Below the pieces are notes generated by a model. The model did not search any database. It was not told the origin of the DNA and worked only from the letters and a program-made list of their open reading frames with translations. Both the position numbers and the translations under genes were made by a program. This document shows, piece after piece, positions 2,102-14,940 of a DNA stretch of 32,654 nucleotides. Source of the DNA: a virus; the IMG/VR virus record IMGVR_UViG_3300045988_125832, positions 1 to 32,654 of that record. One strand, given 5' to 3'. The stretch's first letter is position 1. The number at the start of each line of letters is the position of its first letter.

Positions 2102-4609
2102 TTACATAAAATCGAACAGCGTCAGCTCGTCCATCTCGTTTTCTGCTGCCTGCAGATATCCAACTCCATCTCGGAAATAATCAGGATTCAACTCACAGCC
2201 TTTACCATATCTTCCCATCTTAACCGCCGTCATTGGTACCGTCATAAGTCCGCCGAACGGATCATATACGACATCTCCCGGATTGCTGTATCTGTTGATG
2301 ATCCGCTCCACAATATCAAGCTGAAGCGGACATACATGCATCTGCGCTCTTCTTCGGCTCTGTGTCGTGTTAAGTGTCCGCATCCGGTTGATATCATCCC
2401 ATACCTCAAGTTGGTTCCATGATCCCGGAGCAACCACCATGAAAGTGGCCGGCAGTCTGCCGTCCTTATCAAGCTCTTTTGCAAGCTTCACATGCTCTTC
2501 ATAGTTGTACACGCTCTCTCTGCTGTATTTCCTGTATGCTTTCTGCAGATTATCCACCGATATCTCTTTCAGCTCATCTTTACTGATCAGACGATTGCCC
2601 GATGATCTCCAATATCCGTGTGCATCTATCTGCCATTGCGCTCTTGTGTACTCTTCCTTGCTCTTTGATACCGGATTATCTGCATATGCTTTGCTGTGAT
2701 CCGTTGGGAGCTTTCTGAACAGCAGAATATATTCCGGGCATCCTACACCCATCTTGGTACCATCCTTGCACTGTTCAGACCAGCCAAGGCGATATGTCTG
2801 GTTATTCTCTCGTACAACATCCGTCACAACAGTGATCATGCCGAAATACATAAAACCATGCTTCATGTAATGTTCGATACAATCCGCATGAAACGGCTCG
2901 ATCGTCGGCATACCGGTACCAGTCGCATTTCCAAACAGCACCCGATCTTTAACATGTACTGCTGCCACTCTGCCCGGTTTCAGCACTCGCAGAAGTTCCG
3001 GTGTCAGGTAGTCCATCTGTTCAAAGAACCGCTCTGTATCCTGATTGTGTCCAAAGTCGTTATAATTTGCGCTGTACTCGTAGTGATTGCCGAACGGTAT
3101 CGACGTATGTATCAAATCAACGCTGTTGCTTTCCATGACACGTGTTTCTTCCACGCAGTCGCCGTATACCGCTTCATAGTGATTTCCTCGCACGGTTCGT
3201 TCTTCTCTTGTTCCTTCCACTCCCATCTTCCTTTCCAATCGTTCAGCTTTATTCGCTGAATTCAGTCCATATTTCTTCACGATCTCAACCATCCGCTGAA
3301 CCATGTAATTGTGATTCTTCCATTTTTCCGTCAAGGCTTCCTTAATCTGCCGCTCGTTCTCCATGTAGATAATGTCAATCACAACCGGCTGGTTCTGCAA
3401 GAAACGGTAACATCTGTGGATTGCCTGTATGAAGTCATTAAATTCATAATCAATGCCAAGAAATATCTCACGGTGGCAATACCTCTGAAAATTACACCCG
3501 GAGCCGGACAGCGATTTTTTTGTTGCAAACAACCGTGTCTTTCCATTTGAGAAATCAATTACACGCTGTTCTCTCGTCTCATAATCCATGGATCCATAGA
3601 TATCAACCGTCTCTGGTAACGCCTTCTTGATTGCATGGCGTTCACTCTCCAGGTCGTGCCACAACAAGAAATAATCATCCGGCGAAGCATCTACAATCTC
3701 CTTCATCTTCTGTACCCGGATGTCTATGCTGTCCCGCTTAACTGCTGCCGCTTCTTTCAATCCTTCTGCCGCTTCCTGAAAGAGCTGCATCTGGCCGTCC
3801 CTGTCTGCTGTATCTCCGTAATGAATCGCTATCTCATGCCATCTGACATCAAGCGGTGGCAGATCGTATCCGACATCTGAGTAGTCAGGATTGAGATCAG
3901 ACGGCTTTGTAACGAACAGCGCCCAACTTGACACCCACAACCAGAATTCATCTTCCATATTCGGATACAGCGTCAGGTTGTTTGCCTTTGTACTATCCCG
4001 CTGGAAGAATCTTGTCAGTGCCTGTCCGGTGTCCATGACTTCCAGATATCCGGCATAGTGTATAAGCTCCTTGTACTTATTCGGCGATGGTGTAGCCGTT
4101 GCTACGAGCTTATATGGAACGTTCTTGAATTTATCCAAGAATGTCTGATATGTCTTACTTCCAAAGCTCCGGAGAACACTTGCTTCATCCAGTGACGTTG
4201 CTACGAAGTACGCTGGATCTATATCACCATCTCTCACTCGCTCATAGTTCGTCAGCACAATCTGACTGTCACACGCATTAACCTCATCCATCGTCCGGCA
4301 ATACTCCGGCTTGTCATATCCAAGCAGTTCCACCGCATCCCGGGTGAACTCCTGCTTCACGCCAAGCGGCAACACGATCAAAGCTCTGCCGCCGGTATGT
4401 TCCGCTGCCAGATGGCAAAATTCTATCTCCTGTACCGTTTTTCCAAGTCCGAACGCTTCAAACAATGCCCGGCGTCCGCCCTTAAGTGCCCATGCAACAG
4501 CATCTGACTGATGTGGTTTCAATGCCGGATTGATCTTTGAACGATCAACCGCAAATCCGCTGTCTGTTGCAAGGTCGATTTTGCTTTCTAAAAATTCTCT
4601 ATATGTCAT
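2102..4609 (-). CDS. SNF2-like helicase fused to beta-class N4/N6 DNA methyltransferase
   Basis: Helicase motifs GLGKT, DEAS, TATP and QAIHRCYR are present. Methyltransferase motif IV-like TSIPF precedes motif I DPFGGLMT (beta permutation). Start moved to ATG 4609 (GAGGTG SD, 1 nt after the sigma gene stop). Confidence 0.85.
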   Translation of the reverse strand: MTYREFLESKIDLATDSGFAVDRSKINPALKPHQSDAVAWALKGGRRALFEAFGLGKTVQEIEFCHLAAEHTGGRALIVLPLGVKQEFTRDAVELLGYDKPEYCRTMDEVNACDSQIVLTNYERVRDGDIDPAYFVATSLDEASVLRSFGSKTYQTFLDKFKNVPYKLVATATPSPNKYKELIHYAGYLEVMDTGQALTRFFQRDSTKANNLTLYPNMEDEFWLWVSSWALFVTKPSDLNPDYSDVGYDLPPLDVRWHEIAIHYGDTADRDGQMQLFQEAAEGLKEAAAVKRDSIDIRVQKMKEIVDASPDDYFLLWHDLESERHAIKKALPETVDIYGSMDYETREQRVIDFSNGKTRLFATKKSLSGSGCNFQRYCHREIFLGIDYEFNDFIQAIHRCYRFLQNQPVVIDIIYMENERQIKEALTEKWKNHNYMVQRMVEIVKKYGLNSANKAERLERKMGVEGTREERTVRGNHYEAVYGDCVEETRVMESNSVDLIHTSIPFGNHYEYSANYNDFGHNQDTERFFEQMDYLTPELLRVLKPGRVAAVHVKDRVLFGNATGTGMPTIEPFHADCIEHYMKHGFMYFGMITVVTDVVRENNQTYRLGWSEQCKDGTKMGVGCPEYILLFRKLPTDHSKAYADNPVSKSKEEYTRAQWQIDAHGYWRSSGNRLISKDELKEISVDNLQKAYRKYSRESVYNYEEHVKLAKELDKDGRLPATFMVVAPGSWNQLEVWDDINRMRTLNTTQSRRRAQMHVCPLQLDIVERIINRYSNPGDVVYDPFGGLMTVPMTAVKMGRYGKGCELNPDYFRDGVGYLQAAENEMDELTLFDFM

Positions 4610-5631: not shown

Positions 5632-6461
5632 TTTCGTCTCTTCCTTTCGTTGCACCGGTGCAACTTCGGCCAATCGTCGCCCGGTGCTCGTATCACTCTC
5701 TTGGTCTGCTGTATCTTTACTTCCGTGTAATAGACATAGCTGTACCCTGTTACCTGATTTATGCCAATTCGAATTGATTTTTTATCTATGTAATACCCCG
5801 GACGGGCTACCGGTCCATCCGTGATGATCTTCTTCATTGTCCGACGTACATATGCTTTCTTCTCTGGCTCCGGACGTACTAAGTTTCTGCTTGAAGAAAG
5901 ACTGGATGCGCGCTTGATCTCTTCCGGTTCAAATATGCTTGTCTGCTCAAGCTCTTCCGGAAGCGGCTTGCACAGATATGATGCAAGCTGTTCGAAACCT
6001 TCCTCGTCCCGGATCGGTTCGCTATGATGTGACAGCCCCGGCCAGTTCTTTGCTATCAGCAGTTCCGTATTCCATATGCGATTACAGATCAGGTGAATAT
6101 GGATGCCGCCGCGCTTGCCAATCTCTACGCGCCGTACCCACTTCCACTTCTCGCCGTGTGCTGCATAATCTCTCCGCATGCTCTTGTTAAAATTTGTTAA
6201 ATCCTTTTGGACTGCATCCATGCTTTTCCGCGTGCCTGCCGGGTATTTCAATGTGATCCAGCAATCGCCCGGTAAGAAGTTCTCCTTCAACAGGTGCCGA
6301 CACTTATTCTCCTTGTTGATCTGATTCTGCCGCTTCACCTGCTCCGGTGTGGCTTTCTTTCTCTTTGCCCGCTTCGCACCCTTCGCTCCAATATGTCCGG
6401 CGAACTTATATGCATGCTCAATGGAATTTGTAAATGTAAATGTATGTTTTCTGTATGCCAT
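5619..6461 (-). CDS. HUH rolling-circle replication initiator (Rep)
   Basis: Ordered motifs WITLKY, GGIHIHLI (HUH) and LASYLCKP (YxxK Tyr), with a Lys/Arg-rich N-terminus. Confidence 0.65.
   Translation of the reverse strand: MAYRKHTFTFTNSIEHAYKFAGHIGAKGAKRAKRKKATPEQVKRQNQINKENKCRHLLKENFLPGDCWITLKYPAGTRKSMDAVQKDLTNFNKSMRRDYAAHGEKWKWVRRVEIGKRGGIHIHLICNRIWNTELLIAKNWPGLSHHSEPIRDEEGFEQLASYLCKPLPEELEQTSIFEPEEIKRASSLSSSRNLVRPEPEKKAYVRRTMKKIITDGPVARPGYYIDKKSIRIGINQVTGYSYVYYTEVKIQQTKRVIRAPGDDWPKLHRCNERKRRKCRK
5649..5664. repeat. Perfect 16-bp palindrome GTTGCACCGGTGCAAC, copy 1 of 3
   Basis: Exact string followed by TT. It lies in the last codons of Rep, just upstream of the SD of the RNase H-like gene. 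Confidence 0.95.
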
Positions 6462-6589
6462 CTGGTGTATCTTCGTCCCTAACTTTAATATGCTAATACT
6501 GCCGAAAAGCGCGGTTTTATCCCGCTTTTCTTGACTTCGTAAGTTCGGTGTGATACACTCAGATTGTTCAGATTTGAGGTATTACACCT

Positions 6590-6616
6590 GAGCCGGTTTT
6601 TCAGCCGGCTCTTTTT
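6590..6616 (+). terminator. Plus-strand-oriented hairpin + T5 (terminator-like) inside a minus-strand operon
   Basis: Stem gagccgg (6590-6596) / ccggctc (6605-6611), then ttttt. The stop codon of the minus-strand ORF lies in the loop. Confidence 0.4.
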
Positions 6617-7134
6617 CTTTTCAATGCAGCTTCTCCGGTTGACTCCTTGTAATATGTGCCGTCCTCAGCTACCCAGTATCGGTACCGGTCGCCATTTGCG
6701 ATCCTGCTGCCTATGTACAGGCATCCTGCCGGAGGCTCCAATCCTGCGAAGCTCTTTGCGCTCATGTATGCTTTGTGAATGATCTCGTCCATCTTCGTCA
6801 CTTGTACGCCACCCTTCTTCGGTCTGACGTCTTGCTCTTCACGATCAGATGATCTGCGCAGTCTGCTTCCACGTTCCAGTTTTCCCACCGCAAGCCGTTT
6901 TTTTCCATGATTTCCTTTTGTTTTCGCGTCGGCTTTGCCGGGCGCTTCAGTTTCTCGTCTTTCAATCTCATCTTCTTCCTCCATTTCATTTGCTAATTCA
7001 ATCAGCTGTTGCCAGATTGTACCGGCTACCATGATCCAGAAGCCATATATCAGCCCCATCCAAAGTAGCACTGCACCCTCGACCATCGCGATCGTTGCCA
7101 GCTTATATGTTGTTATGATCATTTTGTTACTCAT
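6601..7134 (-). CDS. 177-aa ORF: N-terminal membrane segment, charged linker, C-terminal small domain (may be more than one gene)
   Basis: Long ORF with hydrophobic LATIAMVEGAVLLWMGLIYGFWIMVAG. An internal ATG at 6792 could start a separate 63-aa product (MDEIIHKAYMSAKSF...). Confidence 0.45.
   Translation of the reverse strand: MSNKMIITTYKLATIAMVEGAVLLWMGLIYGFWIMVAGTIWQQLIELANEMEEEDEIERRETEAPGKADAKTKGNHGKKRLAVGKLERGSRLRRSSDREEQDVRPKKGGVQVTKMDEIIHKAYMSAKSFAGLEPPAGCLYIGSRIANGDRYRYWVAEDGTYYKESTGEAALKRKRAG
6798..6971 (-). CDS. Alternative-frame 57-aa basic protein nested in ORF 6601..7134
   Basis: ATG at 6971 is preceded by GGAGGAAGAAG. The product MRLKDEKLKRPAKPTRKQKEIMEKNGL..W.V.. resembles small conserved proteins of Firmicute mobile elements (from memory). 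Confidence 0.4.
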   Translation of the reverse strand: MRLKDEKLKRPAKPTRKQKEIMEKNGLRWENWNVEADCADHLIVKSKTSDRRRVAYK

Positions 7135-7147
7135 CCTCTCATCCCTT

Positions 7148-7462
7148 CTACTGATATTCCGCTTGCAGATTGCCCCATCCGATCTGTCTCGCGACCGATG
7201 TCGGATTGAACGGCGGCACCTTGCGTCCTGCCTTCAATTCCTTCCGATAACGAAGGAAATCAACAAAGGCAAGATAGTTGACATACGTCACGCCGCAGCC
7301 GTCCAGGATTGTGTAGTTCCCGTATCTTCCACGTTGCACATACTCGTCAATTTCCGCAAGCCGGTTCGATACCGTCCGTGCAGATATATCAAGTGACTTC
7401 ATGATCTGCGCTTTGGTCACGTAAGGCGAAGCGCTGATGTACTTGATCGATGTTATCTCCAT
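7148..7462 (-). CDS. HTH DNA-binding protein (early regulator or excisionase-like)
   Basis: HTH-like TKAQIMKSLDISARTVSNRLAEI. Start moved to ATG 7462 (AGGAAG 8 nt upstream). Confidence 0.5.
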   Translation of the reverse strand: MEITSIKYISASPYVTKAQIMKSLDISARTVSNRLAEIDEYVQRGRYGNYTILDGCGVTYVNYLAFVDFLRYRKELKAGRKVPPFNPTSVARQIGWGNLQAEYQ

Positions 7463-7499
7463 GCTCCTCACTTCCTTTCTTTTTCTTTAACCGTCAGTT

Positions 7500-7547
7500 G
7501 GTGACAAGATGTCACCGACTCAACCCAACCGGTGACATCTTGTCACC
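7500..7547. promoter_or_regulatory. Two operator-like 17-bp sites GGTGACA-N3-TGTCACC
   Basis: 7500-7516 ggtgacaagatgtcacc and 7531-7547 ggtgacatcttgtcacc are exact reverse complements of each other, 31 bp centre to centre. Confidence 0.5.
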
Positions 7548-7550
7548 AGT

Positions 7551-7835
7551 TCAACTATCTTCGTTTTCCATCTTCAACTGCTTCAGCTGGTCAACCAGCA
7601 CCGCCCGTGTCTTATCGATAAGTCGAATATTATCTTCAATATCCTTTGCCTTTTTTGCTCTTGGATACATATCATAGAAGATCACTATCCCGAAGCTCTT
7701 ATACAGTTCCGCAACCTCTTCCTTCCCGGATGTATTCCGAATTGCCGGATGCCACATATAGACCTCTTCGATCAGCTGATACTCTTCATCCATGACAGAT
7801 CCGCCGATCATCTCTTCAAATTCACTCTTTGTCAT
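7551..7835 (-). CDS. Hypothetical early protein
   Basis: ORF with AGGAGGA 10 nt before the ATG at 7835 (the ORF-track start at 7844 is too close to the SD). Confidence 0.55.
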   Translation of the reverse strand: MTKSEFEEMIGGSVMDEEYQLIEEVYMWHPAIRNTSGKEEVAELYKSFGIVIFYDMYPRAKKAKDIEDNIRLIDKTRAVLVDQLKQLKMENEDS

Positions 7836-7914
7836 TTCCCTCATATCCTCCTGTTTATAGTTTGTCTCCGAAAAATTTTTTTAATAGACGCTTCTTCTGT
7901 TGCCTCCCGTCTGC

Positions 7915-7943
7915 TTGACTATTTCTCCCACAGCTTCTATACT
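7915..7943 (+). promoter_or_regulatory. Promoter P1: TTGACT-17-TATACT
   Basis: -35 at 7915-7920 and -10 at 7938-7943 with an exact 17-nt spacer. Paralogous to P2. Confidence 0.65.
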
Positions 7944-7988
7944 TTCCCTACAGGTTCCTGCCAGAACCGAGTAAATATGAAAGGGGGA
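7936..7988 (+). repeat. 53-nt promoter/leader repeat, copy 1 (hairpin 7953-7957/7964-7968 + AAAGGGGGA SD)
   Basis: 49 of 53 positions match 8482-8534. Two of the four differences are compensatory within the hairpin. Confidence 0.85.
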
Positions 7989-7996
7989 AATTCTAT

Positions 7997-8188
7997 ATGC
8001 CAACTTCTGATTCTTTATACACATTTCCGTCTAATCAGCAGGAAGCATTAGCTATGCTCTATCTCCAGAATCAGGACTTATCTGGTTTAACGCCGGCACA
8101 GCTTGCCGATAAGTACAACTCTGTTCGCGATGAGATCAAACAACGCTTCTCAGAAATTCGTGCAGAAAAGCGGAAAGGCATGTACTAA
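7997..8188 (+). CDS. Hypothetical 63-aa protein expressed from P1
   Basis: ATG is 8 nt after AAGGGGGA, with a dedicated promoter and terminator. Confidence 0.6.
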   Translation: MPTSDSLYTFPSNQQEALAMLYLQNQDLSGLTPAQLADKYNSVRDEIKQRFSEIRAEKRKGMY

Positions 8189-8196
8189 TTACACTT

Positions 8197-8229
8197 GCCT
8201 ATATCGCATATTGCGGTATAGGCTTTTTA
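8197..8229 (+). terminator. Rho-independent terminator for the P1 transcript
   Basis: Stem gcctatatcgc / gcggtataggc (one G-U pair), followed by ttttt at 8224-8228. Confidence 0.65.
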
Positions 8230-8415
8230 TAATGCTCTCAACATAGCTGCTTTTGCATTGATCAGCTGTGCAACTGCATCCACTACATCTGCATATCTCT
8301 CATCTTTTTTTGCATCAAGATTCCGTATCTGCTGACATACCGATATAATCGTTGCATCGATTTCTATATCAACTTTCTGCAGATTCATTTGTGCTTCTGT
8401 TTCTTTCATCGCCAT
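8227..8415 (-). CDS. Hypothetical 62-aa early protein
   Basis: ORF with GGAAGGAGG. Start moved to ATG 8415. The 16-nt RBS region 8421-8436 is identical to 9106-9121. Confidence 0.5.
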   Translation of the reverse strand: MAMKETEAQMNLQKVDIEIDATIISVCQQIRNLDAKKDERYADVVDAVAQLINAKAAMLRAL

Positions 8416-8460
8416 ACTCACGCCTCCTTCCCTTTGTCCTGCTTCCTACGTGTTTCCCTA

Positions 8461-8829: not shown

Positions 8830-9094
8830 GCTCTACGGCAAGCCCCTCTGACTTGGCTATCCCTTTTGCAGTGGTTCTTTCAGCCTCAGAGCAAAAAAAC
8901 TTTATTTGGGAATCTATGTAATTACATATATTCTTTTTATATAGATTCCCTTTGTGCTTCAGGATTTCTTCCCTAACGGGTGGACTGAATTCAAATGCTA
9001 CGCTTGATATCTGCTTTGATATTGCAGGAAGAATCTCCTTATACAAAATTGAATCCATCATGTTCAAATCTTCTATATGCTTTGAATCACTCAT
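8687..9094 (-). CDS. Hypothetical 135-aa early protein
   Basis: ORF downstream of the cro-like gene with GGAAGGAGG upstream. Its 3' end overlaps 8542..8829 by 143 nt. Confidence 0.5.
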   Translation of the reverse strand: MSDSKHIEDLNMMDSILYKEILPAISKQISSVAFEFSPPVREEILKHKGNLYKKNICNYIDSQIKFFCSEAERTTAKGIAKSEGLAVELNQIYQDDQNPKPSVKASTPDHQAEYPIVPVWTSNQELSKLIASSKN

Positions 9095-9238
9095 CTTCCT
9101 ATTCTCGCCTCCTTCCCTTTGCTCCGCTGCCTCCTGTTATGGTTCTACATGTGTAGTAAGACGACATCGAACAGAAAAAACACTATAAATGAGATTTTTT
9201 TCTAAAATTTTTCTTTTGTTCTGCTTCCGTATCAAATT

Positions 9239-9472
9239 CTATATAGAATTTACGGTTTTATCGTAATCTAAAGGTAAAAAAATAAGTCGATTATATGGCA
9301 CTCCATATAACTCCTCAATTCTTCGAATGATCGGAACATCAGGATAGCTCTTCCCTCTTTCATAATTTCCAAGCGTATCCTTGCTTATACCAATGAGTTT
9401 TGCTGCTTCTTCCTGATTATATCCCTTTAATTCTCTAGCCTGTTTTAACGTCATTGCAACCGGAAAATCCAC
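9239..9472 (-). CDS. Cro-like XRE-family HTH regulator
   Basis: HTH QEEAAKLIGISKDTLGNYERG. GTG start 8 nt after AAGGAGGA. Divergent from the repressor gene. Confidence 0.8.
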   Translation of the reverse strand: MDFPVAMTLKQARELKGYNQEEAAKLIGISKDTLGNYERGKSYPDVPIIRRIEELYGVPYNRLIFLPLDYDKTVNSI

Positions 9473-9486
9473 AATTTTCTTCCTCC

Positions 9487-9558
9487 TTTCGTAATTTTCA
9501 AGTGTATCTTACTACGCTTTAACCGTAATGTCAACGTTTTTTCGTAATTTTTTCAATT
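9487..9558. promoter_or_regulatory. Three operator-like repeats CGTAAT-N3-6-TCAA in the switch region
   Basis: tttcgtaattttcaa (9487-), ccgtaatgtcaa (9524-9535) and tttcgtaattttttcaa (9540-). The middle one overlaps the -35 of the cro-side promoter. Confidence 0.45.
9506..9534 (-). promoter_or_regulatory. Early (cro-side) promoter TTGACA-17-TAAGAT
   Basis: On the minus strand the -35 is at 9534-9529 and the -10 at 9511-9506, with a 17-nt spacer. Confidence 0.5.
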
Positions 9559-9562
9559 TATA

Positions 9563-9591
9563 TTGATTTTTTTACGTTTTAATCTTATACT
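9563..9591 (+). promoter_or_regulatory. Repressor-side promoter TTGATT-17-TATACT
   Basis: -35 at 9563-9568 and -10 at 9586-9591 with a 17-nt spacer. Same -10 hexamer as P1 and P2. Confidence 0.5.
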
Positions 9592-9613
9592 AACATCCAA
9601 GGAGGTGATTTTT

Positions 9614-10246
9614 ATGGGTAGTCTTGGTAATAAACAAATTATGGCCAGGAACATACAGTACTATATGTCCTTACATCATAAAGATAGAAACGATATGTGT
9701 GAGGCATTGGGGGTTAAATATACTACCTTTACGGATTGGGTTAAAGGAAACTCTTATCCAAGAATTGATAAGATAGAACTTATGGCTAATTATTTTGGAA
9801 TTAGCAAATCTGATCTAGTCGAGGAACATTCTTCTCAATCCAATAGTACTAAAGGGCGCACTATCAATGTTCTTGGCCGAGTCGCTGCAGGTATTCCTAT
9901 CAATGCAATTACTGAAATAATCGACACCGAAGAGATATCTGAAGAAATGGCCAAGACTGGTGAATACTTTGGCTTGAAGATCCGTGGTGATTCTATGGAG
10001 CCGCGCATCTGCGATGGCGATGTTGTAATTGTTCGCCAACAGGACAATGCAGAATCCGGAGATATTGTAATTGCTATGGTCAATGGGGACGATGCGACAT
10101 GTAAACGATTAGTCAAATACGCATCCAGCATCGCACTTGTTTCTCTCAATAGCAAGTATGAACCTATGATGTTTACAAATGAAGAGATAATGTCCAAGCC
10201 GGTACGTGTGATTGGTAAGGTAGTTGAATTAAGAGGAAAATTTTAA
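9614..10246 (+). CDS. CI/LexA-type phage repressor (XRE HTH + S24 peptidase)
   Basis: N-terminal HTH, with GDSMEP (Ser) and CKRL (Lys) autocleavage motifs. ATG 9614 lies 8 nt after AAGGAGGTG. Confidence 0.9.
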   Translation: MGSLGNKQIMARNIQYYMSLHHKDRNDMCEALGVKYTTFTDWVKGNSYPRIDKIELMANYFGISKSDLVEEHSSQSNSTKGRTINVLGRVAAGIPINAITEIIDTEEISEEMAKTGEYFGLKIRGDSMEPRICDGDVVIVRQQDNAESGDIVIAMVNGDDATCKRLVKYASSIALVSLNSKYEPMMFTNEEIMSKPVRVIGKVVELRGKF

Positions 10247-10268
10247 TCCATAAAGGGGGACTTTTATT

Positions 10269-10547
10269 ATGTTTAACAAAGAATCTAAAGAAGAAAAAGA
10301 TGCCAGAAAAACAGCCGAGCTCATGCAGAAGTATGGCTTAGACTATATATCCGAAAAAGATAAAGAATCAATCAGAAAAATTCTAAGTAATCTGGTTGGA
10401 ACAGGTATGATGAAAACAGGTGTTAGTTTATCTCTTGGAAAGCCAGAAGAACAGGTTAAGATGGCATATTTATATGCTCTTATGGAACAAAACTGGATCA
10501 TTATCCGCCAATTGGACAGAATATCTAATTTACTAGATAAAGATTGA
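10269..10547 (+). CDS. Hypothetical 92-aa protein, first gene after the repressor
   Basis: AAAGGGGGA SD, 22 nt after the repressor stop. No TM segment seen. Confidence 0.6.
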   Translation: MFNKESKEEKDARKTAELMQKYGLDYISEKDKESIRKILSNLVGTGMMKTGVSLSLGKPEEQVKMAYLYALMEQNWIIIRQLDRISNLLDKD

Positions 10548-10589
10548 TATCATCATATACACATTATTCTTACAAAGGGGGATTTTATT

Positions 10590-11036
10590 TTGGATATTAA
10601 TGAATATATGAAATCACGAGTAGACGATCAAATTGAATGGTACGATAAGAAATCCGTAAAATGTCAGAGATGGTATAAGTTTTTACAAGCGATAGAAATT
10701 ATAATAGCCGCGAGCATTCCTGTTTTATCTGGTTATACAAGCCAATGTTTTACTATTCCTATAATAATTGGTGTCGAAGGTGCTGTTATTACAATAATCG
10801 AATCTCTCACCAAATTATATAAGCATCATGAAAACTGGATTGAATATCGAACCACTTGTGAATTATTACGCTACCAAAAATATTTATACATTACAAAATC
10901 AGCACCATATAATGATGAGCCTGAAAGTATTGATAATATTTTTGTAAGGAATATTGAAAATATCATATCCTCCGAAAACAATAAATGGAAAAACATTAAC
11001 ATCAAAGAAGCAGCAGAAAATAAATCTGCTAATTAA
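10590..11036 (+). CDS. 2TM SLATT/DUF4231-like membrane protein
   Basis: TTG start 7 nt after AAAGGGGGA. Helices [19 protein letters not shown] and [20 protein letters not shown] are followed by W.EYR..CELL..QKYLY. Confidence 0.7.
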
Positions 11037-11226
11037 CTCTTTGATATGTCTTTTCAAATATATCTGGTTTGCAAGGATATTGTTCACCGTTCACTCCTGT
11101 GATAATCCAATCTCCAGGAGAAGCGGTCATTCTTCCTTCCATGGTATTGATAATTAATTCTACATCTGTTTGATAAGCTTCGACAATTACAGGTTTCTTT
11201 TGAAATTTTTGTTTACAAGATTTCAT
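11029..11226 (-). CDS. PGDYG-family small phage protein
   Basis: [10 protein letters not shown]...[27 protein letters not shown] matches my memory of the PGDYG signature. GGAGG SD 7 nt upstream. Confidence 0.7.
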
Positions 11227-11260
11227 ATAGACGCCTCCTATTCAGAAAGGGGATTCACAA

Positions 11261-11677
11261 ATGACTACATATAATATTTTTATCAGTCACGCTTGGAAAT
11301 ATACCGAGCATTACAACAAAATTGTCCAATGGCTCAACGAAGCACAGAATGAAGGAAAGTTTAATTGGAAAAATTACTCTGTTCCCGAACATGATCCACT
11401 TATTGATCCTGATAGTTCAGAAGGAAAAGATGAGTTAAAAGCTGAACTTAAAGATCAGATCAGACCTGCATCTAAAGTCATTATTCTCGCAGGCATGTAT
11501 GCTGCTTACAGCGATTGGATCGAGTATGAGTTGGATACAGCCGTTGATACGGATAAATATATCATCGGCGTAAAACCTTGGGGACAAGAGCGTATTCCAA
11601 CTATTATATCAAATAACTCCGATGTTCTTGTCGGTTGGAACAAAGACTCAGTTATTAACGCAATTTTAAATTCGTAA
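11261..11677 (+). CDS. TIR-like protein (DUF1863 / ThsB-type)
   Basis: YNIFISHAW.Y..HY..., SDWIEYELD, IIGVKPWG and VGWN match the family layout. GAAAGGGGA SD. Confidence 0.75.
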   Translation: MTTYNIFISHAWKYTEHYNKIVQWLNEAQNEGKFNWKNYSVPEHDPLIDPDSSEGKDELKAELKDQIRPASKVIILAGMYAAYSDWIEYELDTAVDTDKYIIGVKPWGQERIPTIISNNSDVLVGWNKDSVINAILNS

Positions 11678-11714
11678 ATTTATTATAACAGATGTAGATA
11701 ATTATAACAAGCAG

Positions 11715-11743
11715 TGCTCCCTGGTGCTCTAGCACCGGGAGCA
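11715..11743. other. Strong hairpin after the TIR-like gene (no clear U-tract)
   Basis: tgctccctggtgct / agcaccgggagca, about 12 bp with one bulge. Confidence 0.4.
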
Positions 11744-11833
11744 TGCTATAAACAAACAATATAATACACTTAACCGGGCAGCCGAGAGGTGTTACACCAT
11801 ATCCGTTCGAGTCTTGGAAGGGAGTGGTGCCTT

Positions 11834-11911
11834 ATGAGTACATATGAGGAATTCATGGTGTTACTTACCATTGCAATACTTATTGTAACGATTCTGAATC
11901 ATAGAAAGTAA
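11834..11911 (+). CDS. 25-aa holin-like toxin (Hol_Tox-type) peptide MSTYEEFMVLLTIAILIVTILNHRK
   Basis: GGAAGGGAG 9 nt upstream. Single hydrophobic helix with a basic C-tail, followed immediately by a terminator. Confidence 0.55.
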   Translation: MSTYEEFMVLLTIAILIVTILNHRK

Positions 11912-11952
11912 GAAAAACACCTCAGCCGGTCAAGCACAAGGTGTTTTTCTTT
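11912..11952. terminator. Bidirectional rho-independent terminator
   Basis: gaaaaacacc (11912-11921) / ggtgtttttc (11940-11949). A/T runs on both sides. Confidence 0.65.
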
Positions 11953-12056
11953 GAATAGTTTGCCGGACGGATAGGTCGTATCTATCGCTCGGCTGTCTTG
12001 TTAAGTGTATTATATGCTATTTGGTTGATTTTTTCAACCCCAAATCACCTGCAGTT

Positions 12057-12072
12057 GTTGCACCGGTGCAAC
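12057..12072. repeat. Perfect 16-bp palindrome GTTGCACCGGTGCAAC, copy 2 of 3
   Basis: Exact string followed by TTTT. Intergenic, 175 nt upstream of the integrase ATG. Confidence 0.95.
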
Positions 12073-12247
12073 TTTTACAACCAGGGTACAGATTGTACCT
12101 TGCTTCATAACTTCATAACAAAAAGAATCCCCCGTGTTGGCGCACGAGGGACTCAGATACACCATCTAAGGGGATGGCATACATAAAACATACAAACATA
12201 TTATACCATCCCCTTCTTTAATTTACAATTAAAAGGAGGGATTTTTT

Positions 12248-13372
12248 ATGTGGTGTGAACCTAGAAAAAATGGAGTAGTTTATCGTGAGCGGTACAAGGA
12301 TCCTTTGACTGAGAAAAATAAGGTTGTTACAGTTTTCAAGTCTAAGGATACTGCTCAAAATCGTAACAAAGCCCAGCGTGAACTTAATGCAAAGATTGAA
12401 GCAGCCATTGCAGAACTTCAATGTGATGATTGCTCAATTACGCTATCTCAAATGCAAAAAGAATACCTGAAAGCTCAATCGGTTACTTTCAAGCAATCGA
12501 CCGTGAAAAGGAATCAGATTATTACTTCATCTGTTATTGATTTACTTGGTGCTGATGCGATAGTAGATAACCTTACGACTCAATTTGTAAATTCAAGGTT
12601 GCTCGGATCCGGAAAACAGGTTAGTACTCTTAATACCTATATTACACGGTTCAAGGCACTCCTTAATTGGGGATACATAAACGACTACCATAACAACATG
12701 AAATTGATCGCAAAGCTCAAACCATTTGTAGATCCAGCAGATGATAAAGAGATTACATCGAAATACTTAGAACCGGCAGAAGCCCAAAAACTTCTTGACT
12801 ACATCAAACAGGATAAAAGCTGGCACTGGTACTATGCAACTTCAATATTAATACTCACAGGCTTGCGTTTTGGTGAACTTTCAGCATTAGAGATACCTGA
12901 TATCGATACAAAGAATCTCACAATACGGATATCAAAGACATATGATTCAATCAATGATATTGTGACAACTCCGAAAACAGATAACTCCAAGCGCACGATT
13001 CACATCCAGCCAGATTTACTACTTGAACTAAAGAAGTGCTTGCTCTGGAGAAATGAAATGATGCTTGCCAATAATATTCGATCAGGTCTCCTGATTCCAA
13101 ATGTCAAAGCAGGAGAACATATGCATATAGCTGGCTATGAAAAATACCTACGTGTGACCTCCGAGAAACTTCTTGGCAGACATGTGACACCTCATATGCT
13201 TCGACACACACATGCATCTCTTCTTGCTGCAAATGGAATGACTCCGGACGAGATTGCCCGCCGATTAGGGCACAGTAAATCTACAATCACAAGCAAGATC
13301 TATATTCATGTTACACAAAAAGTTATCGAAAATGATAACCGGAAGATTGATCAAATAAAACTGTTTTCATAA
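12248..13372 (+). CDS. int: Tyrosine recombinase / phage integrase
   Basis: LTGLRFGEL (Arg), HMLRHTHAS (HxxR) and LGHSKSTITSKIYIHV (His, Tyr). AAAAGGAGGG SD. Confidence 0.92.
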   Translation: MWCEPRKNGVVYRERYKDPLTEKNKVVTVFKSKDTAQNRNKAQRELNAKIEAAIAELQCDDCSITLSQMQKEYLKAQSVTFKQSTVKRNQIITSSVIDLLGADAIVDNLTTQFVNSRLLGSGKQVSTLNTYITRFKALLNWGYINDYHNNMKLIAKLKPFVDPADDKEITSKYLEPAEAQKLLDYIKQDKSWHWYYATSILILTGLRFGELSALEIPDIDTKNLTIRISKTYDSINDIVTTPKTDNSKRTIHIQPDLLLELKKCLLWRNEMMLANNIRSGLLIPNVKAGEHMHIAGYEKYLRVTSEKLLGRHVTPHMLRHTHASLLAANGMTPDEIARRLGHSKSTITSKIYIHVTQKVIENDNRKIDQIKLFS

Positions 13373-13413
13373 TTTTTGCCCACTATCTGCCCACCTAGAC
13401 GATTTTTAACCAT

Positions 13414-13454
13414 TAAAAAACGGCGGAAACCCTTGATTCTACGTGGTTTCCGCC
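13414..13454 (-). terminator. Rho-independent terminator after the tail/receptor-binding operon
   Basis: ggcggaaacc (13422-13431) / ggtttccgcc (13445-13454). The A6 run at 13415-13420 gives a U-tract on the minus strand. Confidence 0.7.
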
Positions 13455-13608
13455 AAATAAAAAAGATGCCCAGAGCCAGCGTTTCCCTTTCTTCCTATTA
13501 TAATGCACATATATGCAAATGTACGAAAATAAGCCGTTTTTTAACAATTCTCAATACATGATCTATGCATATATGCGCACTTTTTTTGCACACCTGCTGC
13601 ACACCAAC

Positions 13609-14940
13609 TCACTCTTGTTGAATCGTATATGTCACTTTCATAGTCTTATCTGCCGTCTTTGTAACTGGCTTGTCCAGGTTGCTGATTGTTGCTAGATAGT
13701 TTTTTAGATAAGTGGTATATATTCTTCCGGAGTCATTTACAGTCATTTTATTTATTCCATTATTTATTATATACGGACGGGAACTATCATATTGCTTTAA
13801 CTTTGACAATTTCATGCTTTTTGTTATACAATCAAATATAGCAATACGATTATTATTCGTCACATAGATTTTTCCGTTGCTATTTGCTATTTTGTTCAGA
13901 TATATATAATTCATTTTTGTTTCATATTCATGCACATCTGTCGGATTTTTGGTATTGATCTCGTACAGTTTTTTGTTACTGTCACTTATGTATATATATT
14001 CATTATATGCATCTATTCCACCATCATTATACCAATTTGTCTGTGTGTTATTAGTTATATCAATCCGCTGCATTGTCATGTCCGTTATATCTAGTTTAAA
14101 GACTTGTAATGTTTTATTCTTATACGTTACACCTTTGTTTATGAAATAAATATATCTCCCATCATTACATGTGCGGCTCAAAGTTGACAATCCGTCAATC
14201 TCCATATCGATTTGTTCATAGCTAATTTTATTTATGTCTTGCGTTTTATTTTTTTCTATATTAAACGGACTAAATGTTGATATCTCTGATGCATATTTAT
14301 ATACCTTAAACTTGTTAGCACTTAAACTTCCACCATAGATATACTGAGAGTCTATATAGAAAGTGGTTATTCCATCTATCGGTTCTCTTGCATTGCACAG
14401 ACTGTAATCTCCATCTATATATTTGTTAACATTTGTAAGCTCACTTATACCAGCATCTCCAAACCCACATAGTCCCATGTCTCTATGTGTTAATGCTGCA
14501 GCCGCAATCACACCATTTCCCTGGTTGGTTGTCCAGTCGTATACATATGTCATTTTTTTGCTTGGCCAGTCAGCTACACTTTCTTTCTGATTATAGCTCC
14601 CCTGCGTCAACGCCTCATCAGCATTTGCTACATTAAATGCACCACAAGCCGTAGCCTCTATTCCGCCCGGCAATGTTGTTGCATCATCAGGTATTTCTTT
14701 GTCCGTTAATACTATACCACCAAATGCAACCTCTGTTGTTGGACATAATTCGTCCATTACTTTTCCTACGTTTAGATAATATCCATTATTGCTGAACATT
14801 TTTCCCAAAGCGTCAGTCATGTGATTGTCATGCTCAATCACTTCGGTTTCTCTGCATCCCCGAAGTTCCAAGCGCACATGTCCGTGAAACTTCGGTACCT
14901 GAATTTTGTTGATATAAATATTTTTGAGTATTGATTCCAT
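13609..14940 (-). CDS. Receptor-binding / tail fibre protein with beta-propeller-like repeats
   Basis: Last gene of the tail operon. Recurring YIY blades (QYIYGGS, RYIYFINKG, EYIYISDSNKKLYEIN, NYIYLNK..GKIYVTNNN). Confidence 0.6.
   Translation of the reverse strand: MESILKNIYINKIQVPKFHGHVRLELRGCRETEVIEHDNHMTDALGKMFSNNGYYLNVGKVMDELCPTTEVAFGGIVLTDKEIPDDATTLPGGIEATACGAFNVANADEALTQGSYNQKESVADWPSKKMTYVYDWTTNQGNGVIAAAALTHRDMGLCGFGDAGISELTNVNKYIDGDYSLCNAREPIDGITTFYIDSQYIYGGSLSANKFKVYKYASEISTFSPFNIEKNKTQDINKISYEQIDMEIDGLSTLSRTCNDGRYIYFINKGVTYKNKTLQVFKLDITDMTMQRIDITNNTQTNWYNDGGIDAYNEYIYISDSNKKLYEINTKNPTDVHEYETKMNYIYLNKIANSNGKIYVTNNNRIAIFDCITKSMKLSKLKQYDSSRPYIINNGINKMTVNDSGRIYTTYLKNYLATISNLDKPVTKTADKTMKVTYTIQQE

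Follow-up and report, generated by a model that had tools for sequence, protein, structure and literature searches.

An analysis of the virus record IMGVR_UViG_3300045988_125832 from IMG/VR (32,654 nucleotides (nt), hereafter the window) revealed a three-gene cassette, in which a SLATT membrane-protein gene and a ThsB-type TIR gene on the plus strand enclosed a minus-strand gene for a 65-amino-acid (aa) protein of the PGDYG type (Table 1). With moderate confidence, we read this cassette as a prophage-borne, type VII-like Thoeris defense system that carries a built-in antagonist or self-immunity gene. The assignment to Thoeris was well supported by domain matches, homology to a validated ThsB, an invariant glutamate (E90), a TIR/N-glycosidase fold, and the co-occurrence of SLATT and TIR genes. 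An antidote role of the 65-aa gene is suggested by its sequence and genomic associations, and the signal chemistry and pore action of the cassette would follow by analogy with characterized systems. A sequence-only reading of the same DNA had proposed a repressor-linked, lysogeny-module SLATT and TIR-like anti-phage candidate on an AT-rich acquired moron, and this proposal was upheld. By itself, the TIR and SLATT pair would today be annotated routinely as a type VII Thoeris carried by a phage; what is new is the antisense gene within it.

Type VII Thoeris consists of a TIR protein (ThsB) and a SLATT effector (ThsH) and uses canonical cyclic ADP-ribose (cADPR) as its signal (Yirmiya et al., bioRxiv 10.64898/2025.12.03.692087, Dec 2025). 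According to this preprint, the system provided defense in E. coli and B. subtilis, canonical cADPR was produced in an infection-dependent manner, and toxicity was specific to cADPR. Three of the SLATT-associated TIRs, not named in the passage concerned, made cADPR on infection, and the Tad1 and MoTad2 sponges left the system uninhibited. The gating of a two-transmembrane (2-TM) effector by a TIR product, which had been guessed at as the general mechanism for the genes of the window, is supported for type VII Thoeris.

The window TIR protein matched the Pfam family ThsB_TIR (PF08937, 5.3e-18) and the PADLOC model ThsB (4.4e-14) and was modeled with a TIR-like fold, in agreement with the identity first proposed for it. 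When it was compared with the TIR sequences in Table S1 of the preprint, its full-length identity was 35% (E 8e-32) to the ThsB from the validated type VII system of Pseudohongiella nitratireducens SCS-111 (IMG 2745918373), and this system defended against phage (10.64898/2025.12.03.692087); the similarity to the B. licheniformis ThsB was only distant. A catalytic glutamate had been proposed within the WIEYELD stretch, and a candidate was indeed present, since E90 of the W86-x3-E90 motif was invariant in 74/74 members of the TIR family; the designation itself was ambiguous, because the stretch also contains E88, which was variable (D, Q, E or K). The AlphaFold2 model of the TIR protein (predicted local distance difference test (pLDDT) 88.9) matched, in the PDB, EcThsB (8wcf), a B. 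cereus TIR (8fz9), 9b7d, a ThsB-Tad3 complex, as well as the CMP N-glycosidases BcmB and MilB, deoxyribosyltransferase folds, DNPH1, and NDT, and these matches were modest (E 2.5e-5, TM-scores 0.55-0.68). The presence of BcmB, MilB, DNPH1, and NDT among the best folds raised the alternative that the TIR-like protein is a nucleoside or nucleotide N-glycosidase, similar to 2-deoxyribosyltransferases or CMP hydrolases, and that the SLATT protein has a separate function of its own, such as superinfection exclusion at the membrane. This alternative is very unlikely, because the protein belongs to ThsB_TIR by sequence and is homologous to a validated ThsB, the ThsB structures 8wcf, 8fz9, and 9b7d were among the same fold matches, the genomic coupling of TIR and SLATT genes was strict, and in other genomes, the TIR family had candidate effectors of different types as partners.

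Members of the same TIR family that were 42-56% identical to the window TIR had partners of other kinds (loci L035, L039, and L049; L031 and L043; L033 and L036-L038), namely a 322-aa protein with a caspase-like His/Cys motif recognized by eye, an ~400-aa protein, and a 296-aa protein that matched the SLATT profile derived from the window. This pattern, in which the non-SLATT partners were assigned without profile comparison, suggests that one TIR lineage serves several effector types.

The SLATT protein matched the Pfam families DUF4231 (PF14015, 1.2e-23) and SLATT_1 (PF18181, 2e-12), NCBIfam SLATT_1 (1.9e-39; 134.6 bits against a cutoff of 41), and phrog_7395 (4.6e-48), and it contained two hydrophobic segments at residues ~28-50 and 51-76, so that the two-helix DUF4231/SLATT layout recognized earlier was confirmed. 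Across loci, the ratio of nonsynonymous to synonymous polymorphism (pN/pS) of the gene was 0.20-0.35. A search of viral contigs anchored on the SLATT protein returned only two near-identical contigs, the peptide patterns being too specific. The ~296-aa proteobacterial partners of the nearest validated-type TIRs were recognized by the window-derived SLATT profile; Pfam SLATT_3 was matched by five open reading frames (ORFs) of the set of SLATT and TIR dyads and was not assigned to these ~296-aa partners.

The minus-strand ORF of 65 aa is a real gene that was missed in the sequence-only reading. The three plus-strand ORFs listed there (orf92, SLATT, and TIR) were all real and lay at the predicted positions downstream of a CI-type repressor, and inspection of the sequence confirmed an AAAGGGG(G)A Shine-Dalgarno sequence ahead of each; what did not stand was their description as a contiguous set, because the 65-aa gene lies between the SLATT and TIR genes. 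This gene was annotated by independent gene callers, and its ORF was intact across loci with a pN/pS of 0.09-0.29 and near-saturated synonymous change, as in the neighboring genes. It is thus under purifying selection. The gene was convergent with the SLATT gene, with an 8-nt overlap at the stops, and divergent from the TIR gene, with 34 nt between the starts. The spacer between the two starts was too short for promoters, and 37 distinct related spacers shared its layout; for the 65-aa gene, a promoter-like site was located within TIR codons 4-13 (11299-11271) as a consensus match only. Since the spacer leaves no room for promoters and the 3' ends on the other side are convergent and overlapping, mutual transcriptional interference is possible.

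The 65-aa protein seems to represent the PGDYG family in a short form of half length. The match of Pfam PGDYG (PF14083) to the window protein was below threshold (1e-3; 19.9 bits, with a cutoff of 27), and of the 102 positions of the profile, only the first third was covered. The same profile matched 87 of 97 longer relatives, and one homologue is named PGDYG domain protein by NCBI. The AlphaFold2 model (pLDDT 93.5) contained five strands and a short C-terminal helix, no hydrophobic segment was present in the protein, and the fold matches in BFVD were to many uncharacterized phage proteins, several of them named “PGDYG protein”, with TM-scores of 0.92-0.93. In the PDB, a sequence search with the single protein found nothing, a search with a 64-sequence profile gave one chance-level match (E 1.5), and the best hit of the model in a fold search had an E of 0.34, which is no match. 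Identity of the protein with Tad1, Tad2, Tad3, Sequestin, or any solved fold was rejected because sequence, profile, and fold searches of the PDB all failed to give a match. Tandem PGDYG repeats were also seen in very large proteins that did not look phage-like (P0241, with 3743 aa, P0243, P0245, P0250, and P0251), with up to 30 matched stretches in one protein, so the fold is a general module that is not restricted to small phage proteins. The word PGDYG was not found in the literature searched or in the supplements of two Sorek-lab preprints, and the searched papers and supplements contained no mention of an antisense PGDYG gene or of its links to anti-Thoeris sponges.

The PGDYG gene belongs to the cassette as a conserved third partner. 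The order SLATT, PGDYG (reversed), TIR was present in 65/65 related cassettes, with the gene in the same position and orientation. When the 80 nearest viral loci were collected from the PGDYG side, 40 contained both SLATT and TIR genes and 40 contained neither by tblastn, and 1-2 of the 80 loci changed class when a profile search was used instead. SLATT and TIR genes occurred together in every related phage locus with enough flanking sequence. Of 42 distinct cassettes, 36 had the PGDYG protein as their best-conserved member, and its median identity to the window was 75%, compared with 49% for SLATT and 50% for TIR. The backbones around the cassette varied: it was found in repressor-integrase modules with tyrosine integrases, beside serine recombinases, and beside lysis genes. 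In the isolated C. difficile phage phiCDKH01, it corresponds to genes _16, _15, and _14, all annotated as hypothetical. A second layout, in which SLATT and TIR are followed by the reversed PGDYG gene, was present in Staphylococcus phage SN10 and Streptococcus satellite Javan281, where the PGDYG protein was 64-65% identical to that of the window and the TIR was too divergent to be found with the window TIR. The PGDYG gene opposed the defense genes in all cassettes; in the window as well as in phiCDKH01 and SN10, its strand was that of the lytic genes.

The PGDYG gene was absent from 11 of 11 SLATT and TIR pairs examined in settings that were not obviously phage. One of these, an island of Brevibacillus formosus (L135-L137), encoded a TIR 78% identical to the window TIR, with a gap of 103 nt between SLATT and TIR and no PGDYG gene. 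TIR_2 plus TPR-S, SLATT_1, and ThsB_TIR proteins were encoded in its operon (5958-8417), with SEFIR/TIR and Wadjet JetD genes as neighbors. This operon is possibly a Thoeris with two effectors, a kind to which Fig. 5I of the type VII preprint refers. The neighbors of the ten further non-phage pairs were mostly from polysaccharide, transposase, TPR, and methylase families, and phage hallmarks were not among the commonest neighbor families of these ten. Genome loci with a PGDYG gene contained recombinases, amidases, baseplate proteins, and ImmA-like peptidases. Because the samples were modest and gene presence tracks phylogeny, this contrast is supportive and not decisive.

These data bear on the alternative of a plain two-gene type VII Thoeris, in which the PGDYG gene would be an unrelated accessory gene of the phage that by chance came to lie between or next to the two genes and has no functional link to them. 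Validated type VII operons are formed by two adjacent genes with consecutive IMG gene numbers (10.64898/2025.12.03.692087), the chromosomal SLATT and TIR pairs do without a PGDYG gene, and the PGDYG family is abundant in varied phage contexts (802 of 50,697 deposited phage records), with 21-22 of 39 stand-alone loci having no link to an anti-Thoeris sponge. However, a hitchhiking gene is hard to square with an identical position and orientation in 65/65 cassettes while the TIR falls to 36% and the SLATT to 32% identity, with its recurrence in another gene order alongside a different TIR lineage, or with a constraint on the PGDYG protein above that on its neighbors. The all-or-none co-occurrence, the movement of the cassette as a unit among prophage backbones, and the very tight junctions also argue against it, and we consider this alternative unlikely.

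The function of the PGDYG protein was approached through 39 loci with stand-alone copies, which were compared with 93 other loci. The stand-alone genes were co-directional with their neighbors in ordinary phage gene blocks. The PGDYG domain was fused to a Pfam Tad2-like domain in 5-6 of the 39 loci (E 2e-20 and 1e-22), and the recognizable fusion partners among the 97 longer relatives included Tad2-like (3), PF21825/Sequestin (1), and the restriction-alleviation protein Lar (1). PF21825 was the commonest Pfam family among the 142 distinct ORFs that flanked stand-alone copies (11 ORFs), and it was found near PGDYG, mostly immediately adjacent, in 12/39 stand-alone loci versus 0/93 other loci (Fisher p = 1e-7). 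In total, ~17/39 stand-alone copies were fused to or near a known anti-Thoeris sponge. Tad2 (PF11195) is a validated anti-Thoeris sponge (Yirmiya 2024), and Sequestin is a validated sponge of 3'cADPR that was discovered through its fusion to Tad2 and Acb4 (Tal et al., bioRxiv 10.1101/2025.07.12.664507). Tad2 and Sequestin resemble the PGDYG protein in being phage proteins of ~60-90 aa, mostly encoded by stand-alone genes of early or accessory regions, and in forming fusions among themselves; the PGDYG domain was fused to both and adjoined Sequestin genes. In contrast, PGDYG and Sequestin share no likeness in sequence or fold, the former being modeled as a five-stranded β module with a helix and the latter being α-helical. 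The window phage carried neither a second PGDYG copy nor a Sequestin-like gene. From the fusion and adjacency of stand-alone copies to sponges, together with the 65 copies in Thoeris cassettes, we infer that the PGDYG protein acts on Thoeris signaling, in the simplest form as an antagonist.

At four of the stand-alone loci (L073, L075, L085, and L095; ~3492-4494), a 163-aa ORF directly preceded the PGDYG gene, and a Sequestin gene followed in L073. Three members of DUF4406, which we take to be a nucleoside 2-deoxyribosyltransferase-like family, were present in the set of flanking ORFs (E 5e-5) and are taken to be the 163-aa ORFs ahead of PGDYG. The 163-aa ORF, PGDYG, and Sequestin genes look like a small anti-Thoeris island, in which the candidate DUF4406 enzyme might act on ADPR-type signals.

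Another possibility is that the PGDYG protein plays a positive or sensory role, either as an adaptor needed by the phage-borne ThsB or as a non-activating copy of a conserved phage protein, the arrival of which with an incoming phage would trigger ThsB. Several defense systems sense anti-defense proteins. PGDYG proteins of unrelated phages were unusually alike (65-79% identity), as would befit a protein that an immune system senses, and the cassette copies differed systematically from the stand-alone copies, with the consensus PGDW instead of vGDY. An obligatory positive component, however, would be expected to be co-oriented with the defense genes and retained in chromosomal versions, whereas the PGDYG gene was antisense in every cassette and absent from the non-phage pairs, and the fusions to sponge domains favor a role in counter-defense. 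A positive or sensory role is therefore rather unlikely.

In the reading that we favor, a type VII-like Thoeris with its own antagonist, the cassette would be a moron inserted between the repressor-linked orf92 and the integrase. In the lysogen, the ThsB-like TIR (Glu90) would sense a superinfecting phage and make a cyclic ADP-ribose signal from NAD+, with canonical cADPR as the most likely form, and the ThsH-like 2-TM SLATT protein would bind this signal, oligomerize, and breach the membrane, so that the infection aborts; each of these steps is assumed by homology to the validated type VII system. The 65-aa protein would antagonize the system as a signal sponge or as a direct inhibitor of ThsB or ThsH. 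Transcription of its gene would run head-on against the SLATT and TIR transcripts, and the prophage would in this way silence its own abortive-infection system on induction or buffer leaky signaling. More tentatively, and with considerable doubt, the small PGDYG proteins may form a new and widespread anti-Thoeris family, possibly the missing antagonist of canonical-cADPR signaling, of which the antisense copy could be a self-immunity switch that allows temperate phages and satellites carrying type VII systems to complete their own lytic cycle.

Several points weigh against an antagonist in the cassette or against the type VII assignment. An antidote within a defense operon would, if co-expressed, defeat the defense, and the mutual interference or exclusion that the genes could exert has the gene geometry and consensus promoter matches as its sole basis. 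In the preprint, three of the four Bacillus type VII systems tested gave no defense (10.64898/2025.12.03.692087). The window effector is a short SLATT_1 protein of 148 aa, as opposed to the ~296-aa partners, and its equivalence to the tested ThsH is assumed. The known sponge families (Tad1, Tad2, Sequestin, Lockin, Acb2, and Acb4) are small homo-oligomers with ligand pockets that bind the signal and cancel the defense. The 65-aa protein had no detectable similarity to Tad1, Tad2, Tad3, or another solved protein, and a pocket-forming oligomer was not obvious from its model, which is of the monomer only. Finally, the PGDYG domain is very widespread, with 17,397 representative proteins and the repeats in giant non-phage proteins, and it could be a general binding module; small accessory genes commonly adjoin one another in phage early regions.

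If the 65-aa protein is an antidote, it would show how a prophage escapes its own abortive-infection system, which is an open question for phage-borne signaling defenses. It would also add a new family to the anti-Thoeris proteins, uncovered through its fusions just as Sequestin was, and could be the first inhibitor identified for bacterial immunity based on cADPR. The hypothesis is directly testable because the cassette is present in the isolated phages phiCDKH01 (C. difficile) and SN10 (Staphylococcus) and in the Streptococcus satellite Javan281.

The sequence-only reading had instead grouped orf92 with the SLATT and TIR genes. A three-protein system with the 92-aa protein as a sensor or regulator would fit the location of the three genes on one strand, their like Shine-Dalgarno sequences and tight spacing, and the retention of the block CI-orf92-SLATT-PGDYG-TIR in close relatives (L001/L002 and L148-150). 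This trio is already contradicted by the neighborhood data and is hardly credible. Among 50 TIR-anchored and 80 PGDYG-anchored loci, orf92 was present only in these near-identical phages, and it was absent from all other cassettes, ~60 loci with TIR identities of 62-89% or lower. Its homologues with 47-54% identity (L151-L156) were found in lysogeny modules, between repressor and integrase or beside the integrase, without SLATT or TIR. The orf92 family was small (26 clusters), and the protein had no match in Pfam or among the defense families of PADLOC. As a component of the system, orf92 was rejected on this neighborhood evidence. The occurrence of its homologues beside an integrase without SLATT or TIR indicates that the cassette is an insertion between orf92 and int. 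Genes with RVT_1 domains flanked the orf92 homologues in L151-L156. A separate RVT_1 reverse transcriptase was seen in an Anoxybacteroides voinovskiense prophage that carries the cassette (L133, 11328-13001), where it adjoined bAvd-like and tail-fiber genes and looks like a diversity-generating retroelement.

The window reads as the ~32.6-kilobase (kb) genome of a temperate phage of gut Firmicutes. Nearly all of its long ORFs were on the minus strand, except for a short plus-strand block with the repressor, orf92, SLATT, TIR, and integrase genes. The repressor heads this lysogeny-strand block and is context, not a component of the system; a promoter-like site was found on its side at 9563-9591 by consensus match. 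The GC content was 0.32-0.34 over 10001-11500 and 0.42-0.52 in the structural genes, which bore out the AT-richness claimed for the block. Two IMG/VR viral contigs of 32.7-32.8 kb were ~99% identical to the window across the plus-strand block, and the related proteins came from Lachnospiraceae metagenome-assembled genomes and Caudoviricetes. A megablast search of 9200-12300 against deposited phages gave no match, and no tRNAs that might mark an attachment (att) site were found.

Table 1. Features of the lysogeny block and the defense cassette in the window.
Feature	Position	Strand	Matches and remarks
Cro-like helix-turn-helix (HTH) gene	9239..9472	-	divergent from repressor
CI/LexA-type repressor, HTH + Peptidase_S24	9614..10246	+	Pfam Peptidase_S24 1.7e-32, HTH_26 3.9e-5
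orf92, 92 aa, lysogeny-module gene	10269..10547	+	ATG start; phrog_16443, PHROG 2e-25
SLATT_1/DUF4231 2-TM protein, 148 aa; predicted ThsH-like membrane effector	10590..11036	+	TTG start
PGDYG-family small protein, 65 aa; proposed antagonist/self-immunity factor	11029..11226	-	phrog_419 1.3e-25
Divergent spacer, 34 nt	11227..11260	.	back-to-back Shine-Dalgarno: GGAGG (65-aa gene), AAAGGGGA (TIR)
ThsB-type TIR-like protein, 138 aa; predicted signal-producing NAD-consuming enzyme	11261..11677	+	ATG start
25-aa hydrophobic ORF MSTYEEFMVLLTIAILIVTILNHRK	11834-11911	+	Pfam Hol_Tox 2e-4, 21.5 bits, just under cutoff 23.3
Tyrosine integrase	12248..13372	+	

Two further observations were made between the TIR and int genes. 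A long GC-rich inverted repeat, GTGCTCCCTGGTGCTCTAGCACCGGGAGCA, was located at 11713-11745 directly after the TIR stop; it lacked a T-run and was missed by the terminator scan, and it is possibly a bidirectional terminator or the boundary of the cassette. The region 11760-12160 contained a candidate type I toxin-antitoxin, with the Hol_Tox-like ORF on one strand and, on the opposite strand nearby, a strong promoter-like site (12037-12009) and a terminator-like hairpin (12154-12125). The Rfam scan of 9000-13700 found nothing at the gathering score, and a weak match to BsrG was located around this ORF (19.9 bits, E 0.12). The ORF was present in near relatives only and was rejected as part of the cassette.

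The cassette was compared with the known systems that it resembles. Rst_2TM_1TM_TIR, with which a comparison had been suggested, was reportedly described by Rousset and colleagues in 2022 from P2/P4 hotspots, and is said to combine a phage- or satellite-borne TIR with small membrane proteins. PADLOC-DB v2, which presumably includes the Rst models, gave no match for the SLATT, orf92, or 65-aa proteins and matched the TIR only with ThsB and PDC-M50B, and no 1-TM protein was found, so membership in this system was not supported. The window also differed from type I and type II Thoeris: no SIR2-SLOG ThsA or Macro plus TM effector was encoded, and the earlier statement that SLOG, Macro, and SIR2 partner domains are lacking held for every ORF of 9200-12300.

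The closest correspondence was with type VII Thoeris. As in that system, a bare TIR of ~135-145 aa with the catalytic Glu of ThsB was encoded beside a SLATT membrane protein, and SLOG, Macro, and SIR2 domains were lacking. The window differed in its location within a prophage lysogeny module and in the antisense 65-aa gene nested between TIR and effector; the SLATT and TIR genes, which are adjacent in the validated operons, were separated by this minus-strand gene in the window and in 65/65 cassettes. The type VII preprint makes no mention of prophages or of a third gene (10.64898/2025.12.03.692087). Conserved neighborhoods of TIR genes with SLATT in phages of Firmicutes were described in section 3.7.4 of Iyer, Burroughs, Anantharaman, and Aravind 2022 (PMC9503650), which also recorded a gene for an HTH regulator or a zincin peptidase in the vicinity and presented the association as a prediction without experiments. 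Two examples given there, SN10 and Javan281, carry SLATT and ThsB_TIR and also a PGDYG gene; that passage, and a term search of the article, showed the TIR-SLATT pair only and no antisense small gene. The sequence-only reading had called the architecture uncharacterized, and this view is outdated because both sources describe TIR with SLATT, the phage pairs in 2022 and the validated type VII system in the preprint.

For the proposed self-immunity, a conceptual precedent is provided by BstA/aba, in which prophage-encoded abortive infection is accompanied by cognate self-immunity (Owen et al. 2021, PMC8585504). The aba element is a stretch of DNA within bstA that does not encode a protein of its own, and BstA has no relationship to TIR or SLATT proteins, so the analogy is functional only: in both cases, an element inside the defense locus of a prophage would spare the lytic cycle of that prophage.

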